A stretch of DNA of 49,284 nt from an uncultured Elusimicrobiaceae bacterium (GTDB taxonomy: Bacteria; Elusimicrobiota; Elusimicrobia; Elusimicrobiales; UBA9959): assembly GCA_964622585.1 (NCBI GenBank), contig CAZUQT010000004.1, forward strand, positions 1 through 49,284, in the 5' to 3' direction. Both the position numbers and the translations under genes were made by a program. The notes below the pieces were generated by a model. The model made no database searches, was not told where the DNA came from, and was given only the letters and a program-made list of their open reading frames with translations. Each line of letters opens with the position of its first letter. Position 1 is the first letter of the stretch. This document shows, in pieces, positions 5,819 to 23,827 of the stretch.

Positions 5819-6805
5819 ATGAGGACAAAAACAATAATGCTGGCACTTTTGGCGGTAACCGCGGGCGTCTTCGCTTATACGCCCCCACATAACGCTACCC
5901 CGTCCGACCTGAGGGATGCGGTGGCCGACCGCGCTATTGACACGCTGAAAACCGAGGCCGGCGCGGAGGCTTCCGGTGTCAGTATTACGAAGCCGGATAT
6001 AAAGCCGTTCTATGTCGAGACCGGCTCCAGAAAGGCTCCAGGCAATAAGGGTTATGTGGCCGGGACGGATTCGGTAGCCGGCGTGCCTGTAAAGCCGGTG
6101 GTGTTCAACACCATCCCCGGCGGAAAGTTCACCATGGGGACGGACACCGGCGAAAAAGGTTTTGAAGATGCCAAGCCGATCCATGAGGTTGCCATCAAAA
6201 CCTTTGATATGTCCAAAACAGCGGTTACCGTAGAGCAATACGCGGAATGCGTGATCAAAGGCGCCTGTACGGAACCGGGCACCGGCGATTATTGCAACTG
6301 GGGCAAGCCCGGCCGCCAGCTTCACCCTGTGAACTGCGTGAACTGGGACCAGGCGCAGGCTTATGCCAAGTTCAAAGGCGCGCGGCTCCCCAGCGAAGCC
6401 GAGTTCGAGTATGCGGCCACAAGCGGCGGCAAGAATCAGAAATACCCCTGGGGCGATGATGAGCCGACCTGCGACAAGGCCGTGATGTATGGTAACGACG
6501 GTTTCGGTTGTGGTAAAAACAGCACGATGCCGGTGTGTTCAAAGCCTGCCGGTAATACCGCGCAGGGTTTGTGCGATATGGTGGGGAATGTCTGGCAGTG
6601 GATGCAGGATAAATACCAGGATTCATACAAGGGTGCGCCTGTTGACGGCAGTGCGTTTGAAGCTGCGGGCTCCGCCCGGGTGATGCGTGGCGGTTCCTTC
6701 GGCAGCAATGTCGCCAGGTACCTGCGGGCCGATTTCCGCTTCTACGGCGGCCCTGGCGACCGCGTCGGCGGCATTGGGTTCCGCCTCGTGAGGTCCAGTC
6801 GTTAA
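5819..6805 (+). CDS. Secreted FGE-sulfatase (SUMF1/CLec-fold) domain protein with DLRDAVAD leader; candidate DGR target
   Basis: Signal peptide; IPGGKFTMG, HPVNCVNW, RLPSEAEFEYAA, YPWG, DMVGNVWQW, RGGS and GFR motifs. Confidence 0.9.
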   Translation: MRTKTIMLALLAVTAGVFAYTPPHNATPSDLRDAVADRAIDTLKTEAGAEASGVSITKPDIKPFYVETGSRKAPGNKGYVAGTDSVAGVPVKPVVFNTIPGGKFTMGTDTGEKGFEDAKPIHEVAIKTFDMSKTAVTVEQYAECVIKGACTEPGTGDYCNWGKPGRQLHPVNCVNWDQAQAYAKFKGARLPSEAEFEYAATSGGKNQKYPWGDDEPTCDKAVMYGNDGFGCGKNSTMPVCSKPAGNTAQGLCDMVGNVWQWMQDKYQDSYKGAPVDGSAFEAAGSARVMRGGSFGSNVARYLRADFRFYGGPGDRVGGIGFRLVRSSR

Positions 6806-14837: not shown

Positions 14838-15230
14838 ATGGCTAAAATACTTATCGTCGACGACGAGCCCGCTATAAGAGAACTGTTTAAATATGTTTTC
14901 GAGGACGCGGGGCACGAGGTGGCGCTGGCGAATAACGGCCTGGAGGCGCTTGACGCGCTTCAGGGCGGCGTCCCGGATTTTATGGTTCTGGACGTCTCAA
15001 TGCCGGAAATGACCGGGACGCAGATGGTCGTGGAGCTCGGCCGCCGCGCGGCGCGGGACCCGCGGCTGAACAATATCCCATTTGTCGTAATGACCGGAGA
15101 AAATTTCATGGAGTCGGAATTGAACAAAGTTTTTTCCGGGGCCCCGGGTTTTGTCTGCTTTTTTCCGAAGATGATATCACCCGAGAGAGTAATTGAGAAA
15201 GCGCAAGAGGTTCTCAGGGACCGGCGGTGA
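14838..15230 (+). CDS. Single-domain response regulator
   Basis: KILIVDDE...VLDVSMPEM...MTG...PK. Confidence 0.9.
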   Translation: MAKILIVDDEPAIRELFKYVFEDAGHEVALANNGLEALDALQGGVPDFMVLDVSMPEMTGTQMVVELGRRAARDPRLNNIPFVVMTGENFMESELNKVFSGAPGFVCFFPKMISPERVIEKAQEVLRDRR

Positions 15231-15231
15231 C

Positions 15232-15597
15232 ATGCACATACTTATAGCTGAAGACGATGAGCTTTTAAGGGCGCTTCTGACGGACTTTCTGTCTGAACTG
15301 GCACACGAGGTTAAGAGCGCCGAAAACGGCGCGGAGCTGGTTAAACTGGCTTTAGCCGGGCGGCCTGACCTGGTGATAACCGACCTTCATATGCCTGAGA
15401 TGGCGGGGGGGTCTATGATCGCCATGCTGGATATGTATCCGGAGCTTGCGGGGATCCCCCTTATAATAATTACCGGCGCAACGGCGGCGGAGCTTCGTGA
15501 TATGGGAATTCCGAAGGAGATCCCCGTTTTGCCGAAACCCTTTGATTTCGCCCGGATAGCCGCGGCGGTTGACCGCGCGGCACTCCGGGAGAAATAG
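15232..15597 (+). CDS. Single-domain response regulator
   Basis: MHILIAEDD...ITDLHMPEM...ITG...KPF. Confidence 0.9.
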   Translation: MHILIAEDDELLRALLTDFLSELAHEVKSAENGAELVKLALAGRPDLVITDLHMPEMAGGSMIAMLDMYPELAGIPLIIITGATAAELRDMGIPKEIPVLPKPFDFARIAAAVDRAALREK

Positions 15598-15716: not shown

Positions 15717-17444
15717 ATGATGCTCAGGAGCGGGCTATCTTTACGCAGTTGGACGATAACACAGGCGGCTTGTGCGGTTCTTGCGTTTTATCCCTGCGCT
15801 TTTGCCGGAGACGCGGGTTCCTCCGCCGCCTCTTTCCTTAAATTCTCTCCCAGCCCGCGCGGCGCCGGCATGGGGGAGGCGTATACCTCCATCACCGAAG
15901 ACGCCTACTCCGCTTGGTGGAACCCGGCCGGGCTTGGCAGTGTGGAGAGCCCGGAGCTTGCCGCCACCTATAACGACTCCATGGAAGACGTGACGACCCA
16001 GTATTTGTCCGTGGCTTATCCAATACGTTATGGTTCCACCCTTGATTTTAACATTACCCGGCTCAGCGTCCCTCCTTTCCAAGGCTATGACGCGCAGGGC
16101 ACGAAGAGCGCCAAGGTGGAATCCTCTGATATCGCGGTGGGGGGGGCATATGGCAGGGTTCTCCTTAAAGACGAAATTGAGCGGCCGTTGCTGAACGTGG
16201 GAGCGGGGCTTAAGGTTATAAGCGAGAAACTGCATAGAGCCTCCGCAAACACGGCCGCGCTGGACCTGGGCGCTGTTTATTACATAAGGCCGGCCAATTA
16301 CTGGATGAGCAAGGCGCCGGCGCAGGAATTCCGCGTGGCCGTGGCGGTAAGGAATATCGGGCCGGGGTTGAAGTTCGACCGGCGCTCATCCCCTTTGCCC
16401 ACGTCCGCCACGCTGGGCGGCTCCTGGCATTCCCACCCCGGCGGCAGCGCCAGTCTGATTCTGAGCCTGGACCAGACCTATGCGAACGATGAAAAATATT
16501 ACGCAGCGTTCGGCGCCGAATATGTGGCCTTCCAATTACTCTCTCTCAGGGCCGGCTACCGCACCGGCCAGGCTATAGGCAGCGGCCTGCGCATAGGCGT
16601 GGGTTTCCGGCTTTCTCTCATGGACATAGATTATTCCATGTCCCCTTATGGGGAACTGGGTGCCATGCACAAGTTGGGTGTTTCCATGCGGCTTGGTCCG
16701 CCTGTGGCTAAACAACCGCTTGCGGGCAGGACCCAGCGGGTGGAGAAGGCTAAATTGATGGCCAGGAAAGAAAAGATAGAAAAGCTGGATATATTCGCTA
16801 ATGACTTCCTGGAACTGGCCCGCAAAGACCTGGCCGCGCGCAGGTATGTTTCCGCGGATGGCAACATCAACAAAGCCTTCAACCTGGAGCCGGGACTTAA
16901 AGAGGGAGACTGGGGCCGCAGGCAGAAGCGCTTGGCCGCGGTGATAACCGGGCTTAAGCTGGCGGACATCCAGGCCAGGGAACAGCTGCTTTCAAAAGAC
17001 ACCGAACAGTCAAATACCGGGGCTGAGGCTATAAACGCCTATGTGGAGGGTAAGGACCTTAAAGCTTTCCTGCTTACGCACGCGGCGCTGGGCTCGAATA
17101 TGCGCGGTGACGCCATGTTCGAGGAGCTGCTTTACATAATGAGTGACCTTGTTAAGATCCATGTCCGCCGCGACGAGATCCTGCCGAGGGAAGCTCTTAT
17201 TAAGGAAAAGCTCAGGAAAGCCGCGAAAGGTTTTTATATACGGCAGTTCGATACTGCCGCCAAGGAATGCGAGGAAGTGTCCGTATTGGACGAAGAGAGC
17301 CCTGTGGCCTGGACAAGGTTGGGCTCCGCCTACTTTATGCTTGGTGACAGGGAAAAAGCTAGAAAGGCCTATCAGAGAGCGCTGGCTCTCAATCCAGGCG
17401 ATCAGATTACGATGAAATTTATGGAAGCGCAGGGCTGGAAATAA
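15717..17444 (+). CDS. PorV/PorQ-family outer-membrane beta-barrel fused to a C-terminal TPR region (start approximate)
   Basis: FLKFSPSPRGAGMGEAY...WNPAGL (PorV/FadL-like N-terminus), amphipathic strands ending DYSMSPYGELGAMHKLGVSMR, TPR AWTRLGSAYFMLG...YQRALALNP. Confidence 0.85.
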   Translation: MMLRSGLSLRSWTITQAACAVLAFYPCAFAGDAGSSAASFLKFSPSPRGAGMGEAYTSITEDAYSAWWNPAGLGSVESPELAATYNDSMEDVTTQYLSVAYPIRYGSTLDFNITRLSVPPFQGYDAQGTKSAKVESSDIAVGGAYGRVLLKDEIERPLLNVGAGLKVISEKLHRASANTAALDLGAVYYIRPANYWMSKAPAQEFRVAVAVRNIGPGLKFDRRSSPLPTSATLGGSWHSHPGGSASLILSLDQTYANDEKYYAAFGAEYVAFQLLSLRAGYRTGQAIGSGLRIGVGFRLSLMDIDYSMSPYGELGAMHKLGVSMRLGPPVAKQPLAGRTQRVEKAKLMARKEKIEKLDIFANDFLELARKDLAARRYVSADGNINKAFNLEPGLKEGDWGRRQKRLAAVITGLKLADIQAREQLLSKDTEQSNTGAEAINAYVEGKDLKAFLLTHAALGSNMRGDAMFEELLYIMSDLVKIHVRRDEILPREALIKEKLRKAAKGFYIRQFDTAAKECEEVSVLDEESPVAWTRLGSAYFMLGDREKARKAYQRALALNPGDQITMKFMEAQGWK

Positions 17445-18429: not shown

Positions 18430-19167
18430 ATGGATATTACAACACTGCTGGGATTTGCCGGGGCGGTAGCTCTGATAGCAGCCGGAGTAGCGGGCAACCA
18501 GATTTCGTCCTCGCTTATAAATATGCACGGGCTGGTGGTCGTTTTCGGGGGCACCCTGGTCGCCACGCTCATAAACACTCCGCTGAAATTCGTCACCCGC
18601 GCGGTGACGGAGCTGAGCTGGATCTTTAAGGAAAACGGCGAGGCCTCACCGGAAAAACTGATCCCGGTGCTGGTCAGCCTGGCCGAGCAGGCCCGGCAGC
18701 GCGGTTTTTCCGCTCTTAAAGAAGCCGATCCGAAGCTGGCCGACGGATTTTTAAACAGGGCCGCCACCGCGGCACTGGAATACAGCGATTCCAATTTCGT
18801 CAGGCAGGTGCTGGAGCAGGAGATCAACCAGAACGTGGACGATATGAACGAAGTGACCAACGTCTACCGCACGATGGGGGTAATGTCGCCCATGTTCGGC
18901 TTACTCGGGACCCTTATCGGCATTGTGGAAGTACTAAAGGACCTTGCCAACCCCGAGAGCGTCGGTCCGGCCATGGCCGTGGCCATAACCTCGGCCTTTT
19001 ACGGCATTCTTTTCGCTAACGTGGTCTGCGTGCCCATCTCAGGCAAAATGAGGGCCAAGGTCTGGATGGAAGTGCGCATGAAATCCATGATACTTGAAGG
19101 TATACTGGAAATTATGAAAGGCAGCGTGCCGCTGGTGGTTGAAAGGCGGCTGCAGTCTTTTTTGTAA
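18430..19167 (+). CDS. motA: MotA/PomA-family stator A subunit
   Basis: MDITTLLG, VVFGGT, ARQRG, SPMFGLLGTLIG, GPAMAVA...FYG...N...PISGK. Confidence 0.88.
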   Translation: MDITTLLGFAGAVALIAAGVAGNQISSSLINMHGLVVVFGGTLVATLINTPLKFVTRAVTELSWIFKENGEASPEKLIPVLVSLAEQARQRGFSALKEADPKLADGFLNRAATAALEYSDSNFVRQVLEQEINQNVDDMNEVTNVYRTMGVMSPMFGLLGTLIGIVEVLKDLANPESVGPAMAVAITSAFYGILFANVVCVPISGKMRAKVWMEVRMKSMILEGILEIMKGSVPLVVERRLQSFL

Positions 19168-19181
19168 GGAGGGTAAATAGT

Positions 19182-20708
19182 ATGAGATATATGATCAAAA
19201 ATCCATTTATTCGTTTCGTCGCCTCGCTAGCAGTGCTCGCGGCGCCGGCGCTTCTGCGCCCGGCACCGCTTAGCGCCCAGTCGATGCCGTTCGAGGATAA
19301 AGCCAGGTACGAGCGCACACTGGAGCAGAAGGCCGACGAAGTGCTGGTGCGGCTGCTGGGGCCGAACCAGGCCAAGGTGGTGGTGGAAACCGTAATGGAC
19401 TTTAACCGCACCGAGAAACTCGAGTTCGCGCCTAAAGAGAAGACAGAGCCGTTCAAATGGCAAGCCGCCGGCGGCGACGCCCAGTCCGGCGACTACCTGC
19501 TCCCTGGTTTTCCTGCCGCCGCTTCCTCAGGCGGGGATGAAAAGAGGTCCTACAGCCGCCAGATGCTTTACCCGTCGGCTTTTATCAAGCGGATGTCTGT
19601 GAGCATAATACTTAACCGCGATTTGCCCGAGGCGGACGCGGAAAACGTGCGCAGGGTGGTTTCGGAAATACTTATGCTCGATGTTAAGAGGGGGGACCAG
19701 CTTACGGTGCTGAAGGCGCCGTTCGCGCCGTTGTGGCGCACCATCTGGTACACTCCCGAGACCGTCAGCCTGGTACTGAAATACATAATGCTGGGCGTGA
19801 TGGGGATCATCTCCATAGTCGTGGTCGCCATAGGGTTCCTTAAACTGGCCGGCGCGATGAGCACGATGGCGAAGGTGCAGCAGAGCCACCAGATCACTAT
19901 GGACCTGGGGAAAGGCGCCGGGCCCGGCGGGTCGGACCTACCGGCGCTGGGCCTGGGCAGTCCTGTGGATACGGTCAGGTCCGCACGCGATAAACAGGAG
20001 GATGCCGGGCAGCCCGAGAACGGCGAAGTGGTCTTTAATGTCAGGCCGGCGCAGGTCCCGTTCCTGATTAATATGATGGTGAACGAGGATCCGGCCAATG
20101 TGGCGCTGGTGGCCGGCCACCTGCCTCCTGACGTGCGCGGTGAATTCCTCAGGAAGCTTCCCTCAGCTTTCTCCTCCGACGTGATCATCAGCATGAGTAA
20201 AATACGTTTTGTAGAGCCGGATGTCATAAATACGCTCAAGGACGAGTTGGAAAGGCGGCTGAGCGGGACAGTCGGGGGAATAGAAGGGGCGCTGAACGCC
20301 ATTGGAAGCGTGAACCTGCGCGCCAGGCTGGGAATGCTCACGGAACTTCAGAATAAGCAGCCGGAACTGGCCGCTGAAGTCAGGCGGCACCTGCTTCTGC
20401 CGGAAGATCTCGCCATGTTGGCGGAGAAAGACCTTTCACTCATGGTCAGCGCGATTAAGGTTGAGGAATGGTCTTCTGCCCTTTTCGAACTGCCGGATAC
20501 CGTAAGGCAGAAGATTAAAGGACAAATGGCGGAAAGGACCTGGCTGATGGTAGAGCAGAGCATGAGCTATGGCACACCGTCGGCAAGGAAAACGGAAGAG
20601 GCTATGGAGCGCATAATGGCCAAGGCGGCGGAGTTGATAAAGGAAGGCCGTATAGCCAATCCACTGGATGGGCTGCGCATGATAACCGGCGATCAGCCGG
20701 CGGCTTAG
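19182..20708 (+). CDS. Fusion of a FliF C-terminal ring domain (RBM3-like), a TM helix and FliG middle/C-terminal domains
   Basis: Signal peptide; ERTLEQKADEVLVRLLGPNQAKVVV..DFNRTE...IKRMSVSIILN...RGDQLTV (FliF_C-like); TM helix; EDPA (EHPQ-like), GG linker, PELAAEVRRHLLLPEDL and EGRI (FliG-like). Confidence 0.82.
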   Translation: MRYMIKNPFIRFVASLAVLAAPALLRPAPLSAQSMPFEDKARYERTLEQKADEVLVRLLGPNQAKVVVETVMDFNRTEKLEFAPKEKTEPFKWQAAGGDAQSGDYLLPGFPAAASSGGDEKRSYSRQMLYPSAFIKRMSVSIILNRDLPEADAENVRRVVSEILMLDVKRGDQLTVLKAPFAPLWRTIWYTPETVSLVLKYIMLGVMGIISIVVVAIGFLKLAGAMSTMAKVQQSHQITMDLGKGAGPGGSDLPALGLGSPVDTVRSARDKQEDAGQPENGEVVFNVRPAQVPFLINMMVNEDPANVALVAGHLPPDVRGEFLRKLPSAFSSDVIISMSKIRFVEPDVINTLKDELERRLSGTVGGIEGALNAIGSVNLRARLGMLTELQNKQPELAAEVRRHLLLPEDLAMLAEKDLSLMVSAIKVEEWSSALFELPDTVRQKIKGQMAERTWLMVEQSMSYGTPSARKTEEAMERIMAKAAELIKEGRIANPLDGLRMITGDQPAA

Positions 20709-20717
20709 AGAGGACCT

Positions 20718-22253
20718 ATGGAAACACAGATAAATAAAAATTCGGTTTTCTCCGGAATATTTCCATCCGGCGAACCCGCGCCCCAGCCCGCTCACGTTAC
20801 GCAGGCGCCTAAACCCGCCGTTTCAGATGAACAGGTGGCCGCGTTGAATAAAAAAATAGAGGAGATGGAGCGTAATATAGTGGGGCAGCTTGAGAAAAAA
20901 CTTTCGGAACACGTTCCTCCTCCCCCTTCGCCGCCCCCGTCCGCCCTGGCGCCGGCGGTGCTATTAAAGATGACGGAAATGGAGAACCGTCTGAAAGACT
21001 TTCAGGAAAGATTCCTTCTTGGCGCCGCGCAGGCGAAAAACATGGAGGAATCTAAAATAGGAGCCCGCCGCGAAATAGCGGACCTGCTGAAGGTGGTGCG
21101 CGAGCAGCAGAAGTATTCGGAGCTGGACCGGCAGATGCACGACCAGCTTGAAAAAGCCTGGTCGCGCGTGGAGGAGATGGAGAAAAGGATGATGGAGGTT
21201 TATACCGCGGCGGCTAAAAAGCCGGCTGAGCCCGCCGCGCAGGCGGCCTCTCCGGCGGAAATAGCCGCCGAGGTGAGGAAAGCCGTGAACGCCGGGTTTG
21301 AAGAGCGTTTGAAACCCCTGGAGACCGCGCTGAAAAATGCCGCCGCTCAACTATCGGCGGAAATGCCCGCTGAGGTGTCTAAAGCCGTAGCGCTCGGTGT
21401 CGACGGACGCCTGGCGCCTTTGGAGACCTTGCTGGCAAGTGTTGCCGCAAAGAACGAGGCCGCCTCATCGACGTCGCGTGGAATAGCGGGTCGGGTTGCG
21501 GAGCTTTCGGAAGCGGTAGACGTCCGGCTTGCCGGTTTCTCGGCGGAAATACGTCAGCTGCATATTGAGGCTTTTGCCGGGAAGGAACGGGTGGAGGATA
21601 TCTTGGCGGAAGTAAAAAAAGATGTTCTTTCCTCGGTCAAGGAGGCTTTCGCGGAAAGCGGCGGCGCGATCGTAAGGCATATAGATACCATCGCCATTGA
21701 TGAACGTGAGAGACTGGACGAGCTGGGGAAGATGCTTGTTGCCCATGTTGACGAACTTGCCGCTCGCGGCAGGGATGCCGCGGTGAAAATAGATGTACTG
21801 GAAAGTTATGTTAAATCGGGAAATGAGAGCGTAGTCTCAGCGGTATCATCTGCGCGGCAGCAGCTTGAGAAGGCTCTGCTCGCGCGTATTGACGAAGCGG
21901 CATTCCGGGCCGCAGCGGAAAACGCCGCGCAACTTGAAAAAATTAAAGGGGCGTTCGGATTGGCGGCCTCGCACACCTCCGCTTTAGCCGCTGTGGCGGA
22001 AAGCATTTCGGGAATTGAAGCCGGTCTGGGTGGCACGCTTGCCTGCCTGAAAGCATTTGTTAAGGACCTGGAACCGGTAAACCTGGAGGCTGTGCTCGGT
22101 GTTTCAGGCGCTATTATACGCAGGAGCTTTGAATCCGCAGGCGAGCTGGCGGCCGGACTGGAAAGAGAAACGGTTCTGCTCGCCAGAGCAAAGGGTGAAA
22201 TAGAGGCGAACCTGAAAAGTCTGGCCCATAAATCCGGCGGGGAGGGGAAATGA
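20718..22253 (+). CDS. Cytoplasmic coiled-coil protein with Pro-rich linkers
   Basis: GAGGA RBS, heptad-rich helical sequence, PPPPSPPP linker, no TM helix. Confidence 0.75.
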   Translation: METQINKNSVFSGIFPSGEPAPQPAHVTQAPKPAVSDEQVAALNKKIEEMERNIVGQLEKKLSEHVPPPPSPPPSALAPAVLLKMTEMENRLKDFQERFLLGAAQAKNMEESKIGARREIADLLKVVREQQKYSELDRQMHDQLEKAWSRVEEMEKRMMEVYTAAAKKPAEPAAQAASPAEIAAEVRKAVNAGFEERLKPLETALKNAAAQLSAEMPAEVSKAVALGVDGRLAPLETLLASVAAKNEAASSTSRGIAGRVAELSEAVDVRLAGFSAEIRQLHIEAFAGKERVEDILAEVKKDVLSSVKEAFAESGGAIVRHIDTIAIDERERLDELGKMLVAHVDELAARGRDAAVKIDVLESYVKSGNESVVSAVSSARQQLEKALLARIDEAAFRAAAENAAQLEKIKGAFGLAASHTSALAAVAESISGIEAGLGGTLACLKAFVKDLEPVNLEAVLGVSGAIIRRSFESAGELAAGLERETVLLARAKGEIEANLKSLAHKSGGEGK

Positions 22254-23122
22254 CGGGCGAAGAGTCTGTATTCTCCTGTGTTAAGCGTCAGGACATCCCT
22301 GCTGAGGCTGCGCGCCGCGCGCCTCCAGCCGCTCCGCCGCCCCCGGCGCAACAGCAGCAGTCGGACAGTCTGGACGTAAAAATAGCGGACTTTGATATAA
22401 AGTTGAAAGAGCTGGAAGCCGCCTCTTTAACTTCGGCGACTTCCGGCCGGAAGGTGGAGCACCTGGAGAAGACTATAGCTGAACTTGGCGGAATTCTCGA
22501 GGGTTACCGGCTGAAAAACCAGGATGAGAAAGACGCTTTTATCCCGTACCTCGAACAGTTAAGAAAAGACATATCCGCGGTTTGTTACAGGCTGGCGGCG
22601 GTGGAAGGATCGGGACAGCGGTTCGCCGCGGCGGATTTAACCGGGATTTCCGTGAATGTTAACCTGTTTGAGCGGCGTCTGAAAAAGCTTGAGACTGGAA
22701 TTTCCTCCGAACTTGCGGAGCGTTTTTCCGCGCTTGATTCCGCGTTCGGCGAGACGTCGCGGAAGGCCGGCTTGGCGCATGAAACGGCTTTTGGAAATGC
22801 GCGGCGTGTTGACAAGGTCGAGGAACGAGTGGCCAGGCTGGCCTATGTGGAGAGCCGGATGATCAGTATTGAGGGCAAATTGGAGAGGATAAACGAGTGT
22901 GACGCACTTGTGCAGGCGCTAAGGGTAAGCGTGGAGGGCATGGAAAAGAATGTGAATTTCGTTCTGCACGAAGCCGCCGGTATTTCTGGCGAGCAGAATA
23001 GAATAGGTTCCGATTTTGAATCGCTCTCGCGGCAGGTTAAACAGTTGACCGCATTGTTTAATCATTTCCGGAGGGAACTGGCGTTTTTAATCCCTAAAAA
23101 ACAGGAAAGCGGCGGCCAATAG
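22250..23122 (+). CDS. Coiled-coil protein
   Basis: ATGA overlap with the upstream gene, Pro/Gln-rich N-terminus, heptad pattern. Confidence 0.72.
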   Translation: MTGEESVFSCVKRQDIPAEAARRAPPAAPPPPAQQQQSDSLDVKIADFDIKLKELEAASLTSATSGRKVEHLEKTIAELGGILEGYRLKNQDEKDAFIPYLEQLRKDISAVCYRLAAVEGSGQRFAAADLTGISVNVNLFERRLKKLETGISSELAERFSALDSAFGETSRKAGLAHETAFGNARRVDKVEERVARLAYVESRMISIEGKLERINECDALVQALRVSVEGMEKNVNFVLHEAAGISGEQNRIGSDFESLSRQVKQLTALFNHFRRELAFLIPKKQESGGQ

Positions 23123-23134
23123 CCGGATGCGATT

Positions 23135-23827
23135 ATGAGCGTGCACAGGCAAAGACGTGACGAGGTAGAAAACCAGTTGAACAGGGGCGCTCTCTGGGCC
23201 GTAACCTATGGCGACCTGATGAGCTACCTGATGATATTCTTCCTGGTTCTGTTCTCCTTTTCCGTAGCCAAGACGGACAAGACGAAAAGCCGAAAGTACG
23301 AGGAGTCCTTGGGCAATATACAGAAGGCTTTCGGCGGCAAGGCGGATTCCCGTGGTCTTGAACGCGCCAAGGCTAAGGAAAAAGAGTCGCAGGTTGAGAC
23401 TAACTTAAAGGAATCAATGCAGGTGGGCGAACTGGCCAGCCTTGTCCAGGTCCAGTCCAGCGAGCGCAAAGTTAAGCTGGTGCTTACCGAGGGGGTGCTT
23501 TTCGCCTCCGGTAAATCCGATTTAAAGGAGCCCGCTAAAAAAGTGCTGGCCCCCATTGCAGCTGAGTTGAAAAAACTCCCGAATGATGTCCTGATCGAGG
23601 GACATACCGACAATGTGCCGATAAAAAATGGCAAATATACCTCCAACTGGGAACTCTCGATGGCCCGCGCCTACAGTGTGCTCCAGTTCATGCAGGAACA
23701 GGGCCTTCCAGCGAAACACCTGGCTGGCATAGGTTACGGGGATACCCGTCCGGTGGGAGACAACTCCAGCGCAGAAGGTCGCGCCAAAAACCGCCGGATA
23801 GAAATCTCATTGATGAAAGTGGACTAA
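23135..23827 (+). CDS. motB: MotB/PomB-family stator B subunit with an OmpA-like peptidoglycan-binding domain
   Basis: WAVTYGDLMSYL (conserved Asp), EGHTDNVP, SNWELSMARA and NRRIEI. Confidence 0.92.
   Translation: MSVHRQRRDEVENQLNRGALWAVTYGDLMSYLMIFFLVLFSFSVAKTDKTKSRKYEESLGNIQKAFGGKADSRGLERAKAKEKESQVETNLKESMQVGELASLVQVQSSERKVKLVLTEGVLFASGKSDLKEPAKKVLAPIAAELKKLPNDVLIEGHTDNVPIKNGKYTSNWELSMARAYSVLQFMQEQGLPAKHLAGIGYGDTRPVGDNSSAEGRAKNRRIEISLMKVD

Follow-up and report, generated by a model that had tools for sequence, protein, structure and literature searches.

The fusion gene and the fold of its product

The window analysed here is a stretch of 49,284 nucleotides from an uncultured Elusimicrobiaceae bacterium (phylum Elusimicrobiota; GenBank assembly GCA_964622585.1, contig CAZUQT010000004.1, positions 1 to 49,284 of the forward strand). 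We characterized one of its open reading frames (ORFs), whose product unites parts of the flagellar proteins FliF and FliG in a single polypeptide, together with the genes around it; all coordinates are collected in Table 1. Three Pfam families were recovered in this fusion protein above their curated cut-offs: YscJ_FliF_C (PF08345) at residues 133-181 (E 8e-8, 33.3 bits against a cut-off of 23.8, covering only positions 95-147 of the 147 in the profile), FliG_M (PF14841) at residues 295-363 (E 4e-12) and FliG_C (PF01706) at residues 388-491 (E 7e-14). The same scan gave no match to FliG_N (PF14842) or to YscJ_FliF (PF01514), the family of ring-building motifs (RBM) 1 and 2. Against the NCBIfam FliG equivalog TIGR00207 the protein reached 66.4 bits, short of the cut-off of 226.7. 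When a profile of 53 orthologues was aligned with hhalign, residues 134-190 fell on E. coli FliF 373-447, which is the final strand-helix-strand of RBM3 up to the segment preceding the second transmembrane helix.

An AlphaFold2 model built from the 53 sequences had a mean predicted local distance difference test score (pLDDT) of 74. Its periplasmic part consists of a helix (37-59), a strand (64-72), a low-confidence insert (76-131) and a strand-helix-strand unit (135-178); a single long helix (192-242) and a disordered stretch (242-288) then lead to the FliG_M and FliG_C domains, which were modelled with pLDDT of about 90 or above. Searched against the PDB with Foldseek, the model matched structures of the middle and C-terminal (MC) domains of FliG best (1lkv, E 6e-10) and FliF RBM3/collar rings next, at about 1e-3 (6scn, 9e-4), with probability 1.00 and template-modelling (TM) scores of 0.5-0.58 by target (0.58 for the FliF ring 8z5v). 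Both FliG domains superposed closely when taken singly (Table 1). PF08345, hhalign and Foldseek agree in placing in the fusion the RBM3 with beta-collar that typifies FliF, the collar insert being of low confidence, and as modelled the periplasmic domain is a ring-building motif with an insert, like RBM3 and collar of FliF. The M and C folds of FliG and the Gly-Gly linker were found as well. The initial annotation had proposed a natural fusion of the FliF C-terminal part to FliG-MC that lacks FliG-N, RBM1 and RBM2, and Pfam, the model, Foldseek and the alignments all bear it out.

Hydropathy showed one strong transmembrane helix, centred on residues 203-221, and a weakly hydrophobic N-terminal stretch. 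In the orthologue alignment Gln33 is near-invariant and preceded by a small residue, which fits a predicted signal-peptidase cleavage site. All 53 orthologues are intact and full length and share 64 invariant columns; columns 215-240 and both glycines of the linker (G365, G366) are invariant, and the LPG and RGD motifs of the RBM3-like domain are near-invariant over the wider fusion superfamily. FliG_C is the part with the best conservation and the most confident fold. Residues 243-288 stand where the tail of FliF and the FliG-N domain would be expected.

The fusion recurs in many genomes. A word-indexed search found 161 proteins at E <= 1e-3 among 8000 scored; all 120 homologues listed of these 161 carry the three Pfam domains at a length of 487-579 amino acids, and each named one among the 120 comes from Elusimicrobia or an unclassified metagenome-assembled genome (MAG). 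HMMER, run exhaustively over 1.84 billion representatives, returned 1757 proteins at E <= 1e-3, 405 at <= 1e-10 and 58 at <= 1e-30, and most of the best 150 matches span nearly the entire query at 20-50% identity. Among 89 diverse superfamily members FliG_C was detected in 89, FliG_M in 87, YscJ_FliF_C in 64 and a C-terminal tetratricopeptide repeat (TPR) domain in about 16. Used as a query, the 89-row alignment returned only the window's own orthogroup, and a 640-residue paralogue gave 367 matches at E <= 1e-5, the named ones among the 120 listed being all Elusimicrobia. Altogether, the fusion is conserved across free-living Elusimicrobiota. As candidate leads only, the ESM Atlas offered matches in Cloacimonadota (0.93), Bdellovibrionota (0.92), Bacteroidota (0.89) and Thermodesulfobacteriota (0.86).

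Logan contigs from four DNA runs of one study, runs that may include the source sample, cover the fusion gene. One record spans 19781-22290 and others 19430-19902 and 19283-19808, without differences, indels or joints. Two contigs of run X2 diverge from the window at 19245 and 21481, with loose ends of 25 and 255 letters, and probably represent a related strain in the same sample.

A conserved gene neighbourhood

On the + strand, the genes of the window run in the order PAS kinase, two response regulators, outer-membrane protein, histidine kinase, MotA, fusion, two coiled-coil proteins, MotB, response regulator and more two-component genes, the latter being dense on both flanks. We compared this order with 57 public loci, all from Elusimicrobia or unclassified MAGs and many of them cut by contig ends. 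The motA and kinase genes were present in 47 loci each, the barrel gene in 44, and motB and the gene for coiled-coil protein 1 in 40 each; all five core genes occurred together in 33. Most often the genes are arranged as barrel, kinase, motA, fusion, coiled coil, motB, and single-domain response regulators also lie upstream in many loci.

Table 1. Coordinates in the window of the fusion gene, its parts and the neighbouring genes (aa, amino acids; residue numbers refer to the protein concerned)
Feature	Coordinates	Strand	Basis
Fusion protein, 508 aa, ATG start	19182..20708	+	ORF; Pfam PF08345, PF14841, PF01706; model; Foldseek
Signal-peptide-like segment, residues 1-32	19182..19277	+	Weak hydrophobicity; helix 8-24 in model; Gln33 conserved
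RBM3-like ring-building domain, residues 36-181 (36-72 + 133-181)	19287..19724	+	Model, Foldseek, hhalign
Collar-like insert splitting the RBM3-like domain, residues 73-132, about 60 aa			
Transmembrane helix (about 196-228) and juxtamembrane cytoplasmic helix, residues 192-242	19755..19907	+	Hydropathy, model, orthologue columns
Gly/Pro-rich disordered tether, residues 243-288	19908..20045	+	pLDDT <50; gapped, poorly conserved columns; no FliG_N match
FliG middle domain, residues 289-363	20046..20270	+	Pfam, alignments, Foldseek (4qrm_D, TM 0.87)
Gly-Gly linker and FliG C-terminal domain, residues 365-491	20274..20654	+	Pfam, alignments, Foldseek (1qc7, TM 0.93, root-mean-square deviation 1.1)
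Two single-domain response regulators	14838-15230 and about 15232-15597	+	Translations; NCBIfam receiver-domain matches
PorV/PorQ-family outer-membrane beta-barrel with C-terminal helical/TPR domain, 575 aa from likely start	15717..17444	+	NCBIfam, model, Foldseek
Histidine kinase, 313 aa, HisKA + HATPase_c, one N-terminal transmembrane segment	17454..18395	+	Pfam, hydropathy
MotA/PomA-type stator subunit, 245 aa	18430..19167	+	PF01618; structure alignment; conserved loop charges
Coiled-coil protein 1, 511 aa, soluble	20718..22253	+	32-orthologue alignment
Coiled-coil protein 2, 290 aa	22250..23122	+	ORF, translation; present in 12/57 loci
MotB-type stator subunit, 230 aa: plug, transmembrane Asp, OmpA-like peptidoglycan-binding domain	23135..23827	+	PF13677, PF00691, transmembrane segment

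The two stator genes belong to their families by domain content, PF01618 in MotA and PF13677 and PF00691 in MotB all scoring above cut-off. For MotA, the alignment to solved MotA/PomA structures covers the whole protein (E 3e-36), and the transmembrane Asp of MotB, read from the translation, lies in the motif YGDLMS.

No sensor domain was detected in the histidine kinase by Pfam or hydropathy. At 7 of the 57 loci kinase and fusion share a single ORF, and the single proteins P0139 and P0143 carry HisKA, HATPase_c, YscJ_FliF_C, FliG_M and FliG_C by Pfam; a further one, P0127, named 'ATP-binding protein' of Elusimicrobiota, has HisKA, HATPase_c, FliG_M and FliG_C without the weak FliF match. Since the N-terminal hydrophobic segment follows the fused kinase in these 7 relatives, it must be an internal transmembrane segment there. 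The kinase-fusion ORFs (loci L051, L054, L055, L056, L057, L059 and L061) make up a divergent branch of the family with lengths of about 820-850 amino acids, and at these loci motA-motB come after the coiled-coil gene instead of flanking the fusion gene.

The outer-membrane protein scored 154.3 bits with NF033709 (cut-off 90) and stayed below the NCBIfam equivalog models for PorV and PorQ themselves. Its model comprises a barrel (80-325) and a helical/TPR domain (351-571), and its best Foldseek matches were the PorV chains 8gl6_F (6e-15) and 6h3i_F (7e-14), followed by FadL. The host genome holds 27 ORFs that match this barrel at E <= 1e-4, a large expansion of the PorV/PorQ type.

Coiled-coil protein 1 showed no hydrophobic segment and no Pfam family above cut-off. 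Behind an N-terminal motif in which Ser9 and Phe11 are invariant among the 32 orthologues come a linker rich in Pro, a central block of strong conservation and, at the C-terminus, the motif GVSG. Coiled-coil protein 2, whose start overlaps the final part of protein 1, resembles it in its N-terminal motif; both motifs (window 20718-20780 and 22250-22300), the first preceding a Pro-rich linker, look like candidate docking peptides. When the N-terminal 70 residues of protein 1 were submitted with fusion residues 223-508 to complex prediction, the scores were 0.01 and 0.02 against a mark of 0.32, an outcome that, with alignments of 32 rows for the coiled coil and 53 for the fusion, speaks neither for nor against binding. 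The middle of protein 1 matches apolipoprotein-type repeats and ZorA-type tails of MotA relatives in the PDB (E 1e-9 to 2e-5). We attributed these matches, and one to a tape-measure protein, to coiled-coil or amphipathic composition and not to homology; an amphipathic, membrane-facing coiled coil is possible.

The initial annotation had described a one-protein rotor. This is too simple in that the gene always belongs to a conserved cluster with MotAB, kinase, barrel and coiled-coil proteins and is one of about six paralogues. Some 13 kb upstream the window also encodes an FGE-sulfatase-family protein (5819-6805) with a weak likeness to PorK/GldK (85.7 bits against a cut-off of 350), for which we saw no link to the cluster.

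Paralogues, phylogeny and flagellar genes

The host genome (3.36 Mb in 374 contigs, 86% complete) contains five FliG_C matches in open frames of 484-644 amino acids; phmmer picked out six fusion-like ORFs and five MotA paralogues. The five further fusion paralogues lie on contigs C225, C199, C49, C314 and C278 of genome G000 (loci L001, L003, L004, L005 and L069). On C49 a paralogous cluster of like design to that of the window encodes a barrel with TPR, a fusion, a response regulator, a beta-propeller protein, a PorV-like barrel, a TPR-LysM protein, MotA and two MotB. On C278 a 300-residue fusion-like ORF is directly followed by one of 389 residues, possibly a split or shortened copy. The best FliG_C scorer of the genome is the 640-residue fusion with a C-terminal TPR, the most widespread form in the phylum.

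To place the fusions relative to flagellar FliG, we built a quick, unrooted maximum-likelihood tree of the FliG-MC region. Its 52 rows comprised six canonical FliGs, from E. coli and five Elusimicrobiota, and 46 fusions drawn from the 89-member superfamily set by taking alternate rows and adding the two paralogues of the host genome. The six canonical sequences split from the 46 fusions at a branch with a Shimodaira-Hasegawa-like approximate likelihood ratio test (SH-aLRT) value of 99, and the fusion of the window sits in an 11-row fusion clade with support 96. On this quick tree, which being unrooted sets no direction of descent, it does not group with canonical FliG. The 640-residue paralogue falls in that part of the fusion side which also holds the canonical FliG clade, at weakly supported forks.

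The host genome, at 86% completeness, gave no match to FHIPEP/FlhA, the rod motif, YscJ_FliF, FliM, FliMN_C or the flagellin N-terminal domain. A sample of 201 genomes from the phylum yielded FliG_C in 72 and FHIPEP in 5, the latter all lying within the 72, so that 67 of 72 genomes with FliG_C have no FlhA match. There were up to 6 FliG_C matches per genome; frames of at least 408 amino acids hold 140 of the 150 matches listed, beyond which there are 26 more, and two large families nearly lack the domain (0/58 and 1/63 genomes). Four of the five FHIPEP genomes have a FliG_C match in a frame of canonical size (335-356 amino acids). These genomes (G064, G062, G104, G170 and G121) mostly carry canonical-size FliG, and at least G064 and G121 hold long fusion frames too, showing that flagellum and fusion can coexist. 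Judged from gene content, the earlier proposals that the protein scaffolds no export gate and is switchless fit both the host genome, with no FlhA, YscJ_FliF, FliM or FliMN_C detected, and the 67 of 72 genomes of the phylum.

A putative rotor-stator machine outside the flagellum

We read the motifs of the fusion by alignment to FliG of E. coli K-12 and of T. maritima (1lkv). The FliM-binding EHPQ is replaced by E302 D303 P304 A305 (EHPQR reads EDPAN). In the torque helix R281 is kept as R452, while K264 has become F435, D288 and D289 have become Q459 and S460, and R297 has become S467. The position of canonical R287, one residue ahead of the lost acidic pair, holds E458, which is invariant in the orthologues where canonical FliG has Lys or Arg, and the displayed orthologue rows have Arg or Lys at position 452; the torque helix thus retains one basic and one acidic conserved residue. 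Both alignments confirm what had been read at first sight, namely EDPA, a hinge reading LLLP, and a torque helix with its Arg kept and its acidic pair lost.

The stator side is conserved in charge as well. In 47 MotA orthologues the cytoplasmic loop has R89 in 40, Arg or Lys 91 in 42, K97 in 37, Glu or Asp 98 in 43 and D100 in 39, and the counterpart of PomA E96 is Lys, in 37 of the 47. The PomA loop residues to which these align presumably have the stator roles that we ascribe to them. MotA residues 89-101 correspond to window positions 18694-18732, and fusion residues 452-460 to 20535-20561. For the flagellar motor, MotA R90 and E98 are described as pairing with FliG D289 and R281 (PMC7564593). 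Because charges are reversed in both the MotA loop and the torque helix of the fusion, the sequences suggest a stator-rotor interface that has co-evolved.

The cluster points to an undescribed, motor-like machine of the cell envelope, and on balance we favour the view that the fusion protein is the ring subunit of a rotor-stator machine independent of the flagellum. The periplasmic RBM3-type domain would build a membrane ring, as FliF does, anchored in the inner membrane by the transmembrane helices and the juxtamembrane helix, and flexible tethers would suspend a circle of FliG-MC domains beneath the membrane. Ion-powered, peptidoglycan-anchored MotA5B2 units would push the torque helix of FliG_C and so turn the ring, and the ring-associated kinase with CheY-like regulators may control the machine or read it out. 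Since FliM, FliN and FliG-N are missing, no flagellar-type switch is expected. Candidate loads are the PorV-type outer-membrane barrel with its periplasmic TPR arm, the cytoplasmic coiled-coil proteins, or both.

Several observations weigh against such a motor. Just one of the five canonical charged torque residues is retained (R281), and even this position is Gly in 20 of 46 rows of the wider fusion superfamily. Furthermore, the hinge MFxF reads LLLP, with Phe236 replaced by Pro407, and with torque charges and hinge both altered, torque generation of the flagellar type is not assured. The collar insert has roughly half the length of FliF's collar; MotA and MotB fall below their NCBIfam equivalog cut-offs (168.3 against 237 and 169.8 against 283); and no axle, rod or other evident load is encoded. 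As the genome is 86% complete, the absence of flagellar genes from it is not proven. Finally, ring formation and rotation are inferred from homology.

The strongest alternative, which we hold to be unlikely and yet worth weighing, is a signalling device: a mostly static or load-sensing ring with MotAB, whose assembly or engagement by the stator would gate the ring-associated kinase, the output being phosphorylation of the adjoining response regulators and no mechanical work. It would account for a kinase that has no sensor and only one N-terminal transmembrane segment, adjoins the fusion gene in 47 of 57 loci and is one polypeptide with it in 7, for the wealth of two-component genes on both sides in the window, and for the loss of most torque-helix charges. 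Campylobacter provides a precedent, as its FliF/FliG ring is reportedly required for activation of the kinase FlgS (PMC3760246). However, a complete and conserved MotA/MotB pair with plug, transmembrane Asp and peptidoglycan anchor would be costly if ion-driven movement went unused, FliG_C would not be expected to be the best conserved and most confidently folded part, and the outer-membrane barrel with TPR and the coiled-coil proteins would be left unexplained. A form of the motor that includes signalling, and that we rate a shade less probable again than the purely signalling device, is a rotary mechanosensor and actuator with a built-in kinase, in which the PorV-type barrel and its TPR arm link a MotAB-driven ring to the outer membrane. 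Such a ring would spin or stall according to the mechanical state of the envelope, and the seated or fused kinase would convert that state into phosphorylation.

It is very improbable that the gene is a decaying remnant of a lost flagellum without present function. In its favour, flagella do occur in some Elusimicrobiota (FHIPEP in 5/201 genomes) and several canonical FliG motifs are degraded, but the 53 intact full-length orthologues with their 64 invariant columns, the gene order kept across the phylum and the presence of as many as 6 FliG_C matches in one genome disfavour a relic. So do flagellated genomes such as G064, which hold canonical FliG alongside long fusion frames, and the branching of the fusions apart from canonical FliG on the tree. 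That the ORF is an assembly artefact joining two genes has next to no probability, as we found nothing in its favour and it is in practice ruled out by the same architecture in the 120 listed homologues, which stem from several sources, and in 57 public loci and by Logan contigs that cross the junctions without differences or joints, in four runs that may include the source sample.

The proposed flagellum-independent motor can be set beside several known systems. With the core of the flagellar motor the fusion shares the RBM3-type ring domain, the transmembrane helix, the FliG_M and FliG_C folds and the Gly-Gly linker, and its neighbours share with the flagellar stator a MotA/PomA-like subunit and a MotB-like one with plug, transmembrane Asp and peptidoglycan-binding domain. 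It differs in being one polypeptide without RBM1/2, FliG-N and FliF tail, in its changed EHPQ, hinge Phe and four of five torque charges, and in its partners, which are a PorV-family barrel, a kinase and coiled-coil proteins; moreover, its host genome, as far as its 86% completeness reaches, has no match to export gate, rod, hook, filament, FliM or FliN. Chlamydiaceae have a natural FliF-FliG fusion of about 330 amino acids with an RBM2-like and one further RBM and FliG_M only (Bergeron 2016, PeerJ, PMC4768692). In it, too, a truncated FliF is linked to a cytosolic part resembling FliG, in hosts not thought to be flagellated, whereas the fusion described here has RBM3 with a collar insert, a torque-receiving FliG_C and its cognate MotAB adjoining. 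Against the chlamydial NCBIfam model NF004606 it gave E 0.063, and it does not have the domain content of the Chlamydiaceae type.

Fusions of FliF to FliG were reportedly described by Francis in 1992 and Thomas in 2001. Engineered and mutant fusions indicate that a covalent link is compatible with ring assembly (PMC6079021; chain in PDB 8z4d/8z4g). Those of Salmonella and Vibrio are full or near-full length and act in a complete flagellar system, whereas the present fusion is natural, truncated and without such a system. Outside the flagellum, 5:2 ion-driven motors working on the outer membrane include PorLM/GldLM, of type IX secretion with PorV, and ExbBD/TolQR (see also bioRxiv 10.1101/2024.03.12.584617). 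Like the present cluster, they have an inner-membrane ion-driven unit encoded with an outer-membrane partner, but they are not known to have a ring of the FliF/FliG type, which the fusion is predicted to form here. SprA_N gave only a sub-threshold match in the host genome (E 9e-4, 18.4 bits against a cut-off of 27), which is no evidence for a type IX system there, and a link to type IX secretion was dropped.

Numerous motAB, flbD and fliG homologues are noted in non-flagellated Elusimicrobiota, the role of MotAB being called unclear (Uzun et al., bioRxiv 10.1101/2022.07.08.499144), and rotor proteins without filament proteins are reported from 11% of non-motile species (ISME J 2025, PMC12199754). 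Our literature search, in which subscription journals and supplements were thinly covered, found such passing mentions only and no description of the fusion family or its cluster. To our knowledge, the flagellar rotor-stator pair, a textbook rotary engine, is known only within flagella. If the proposed machine is real, the torque core would be a reusable module, and the minimal parts for coupling a ring to a stator would come down to one protein on the ring side, without FliG-N, FliM or FliN. The fusion could also account for the 'numerous motAB and fliG homologues' of non-flagellated Elusimicrobiota and for the rotor proteins of non-motile species. Finally, the finding is relevant to the origin of the motor core, which may be older than the flagellum or may have been exported from it. 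The tree, being unrooted, is compatible with a module that preceded the flagellar motor, and, as a bolder possibility, this self-standing rotor-stator module may resemble the unit from which that motor was built, instead of being its derivative.

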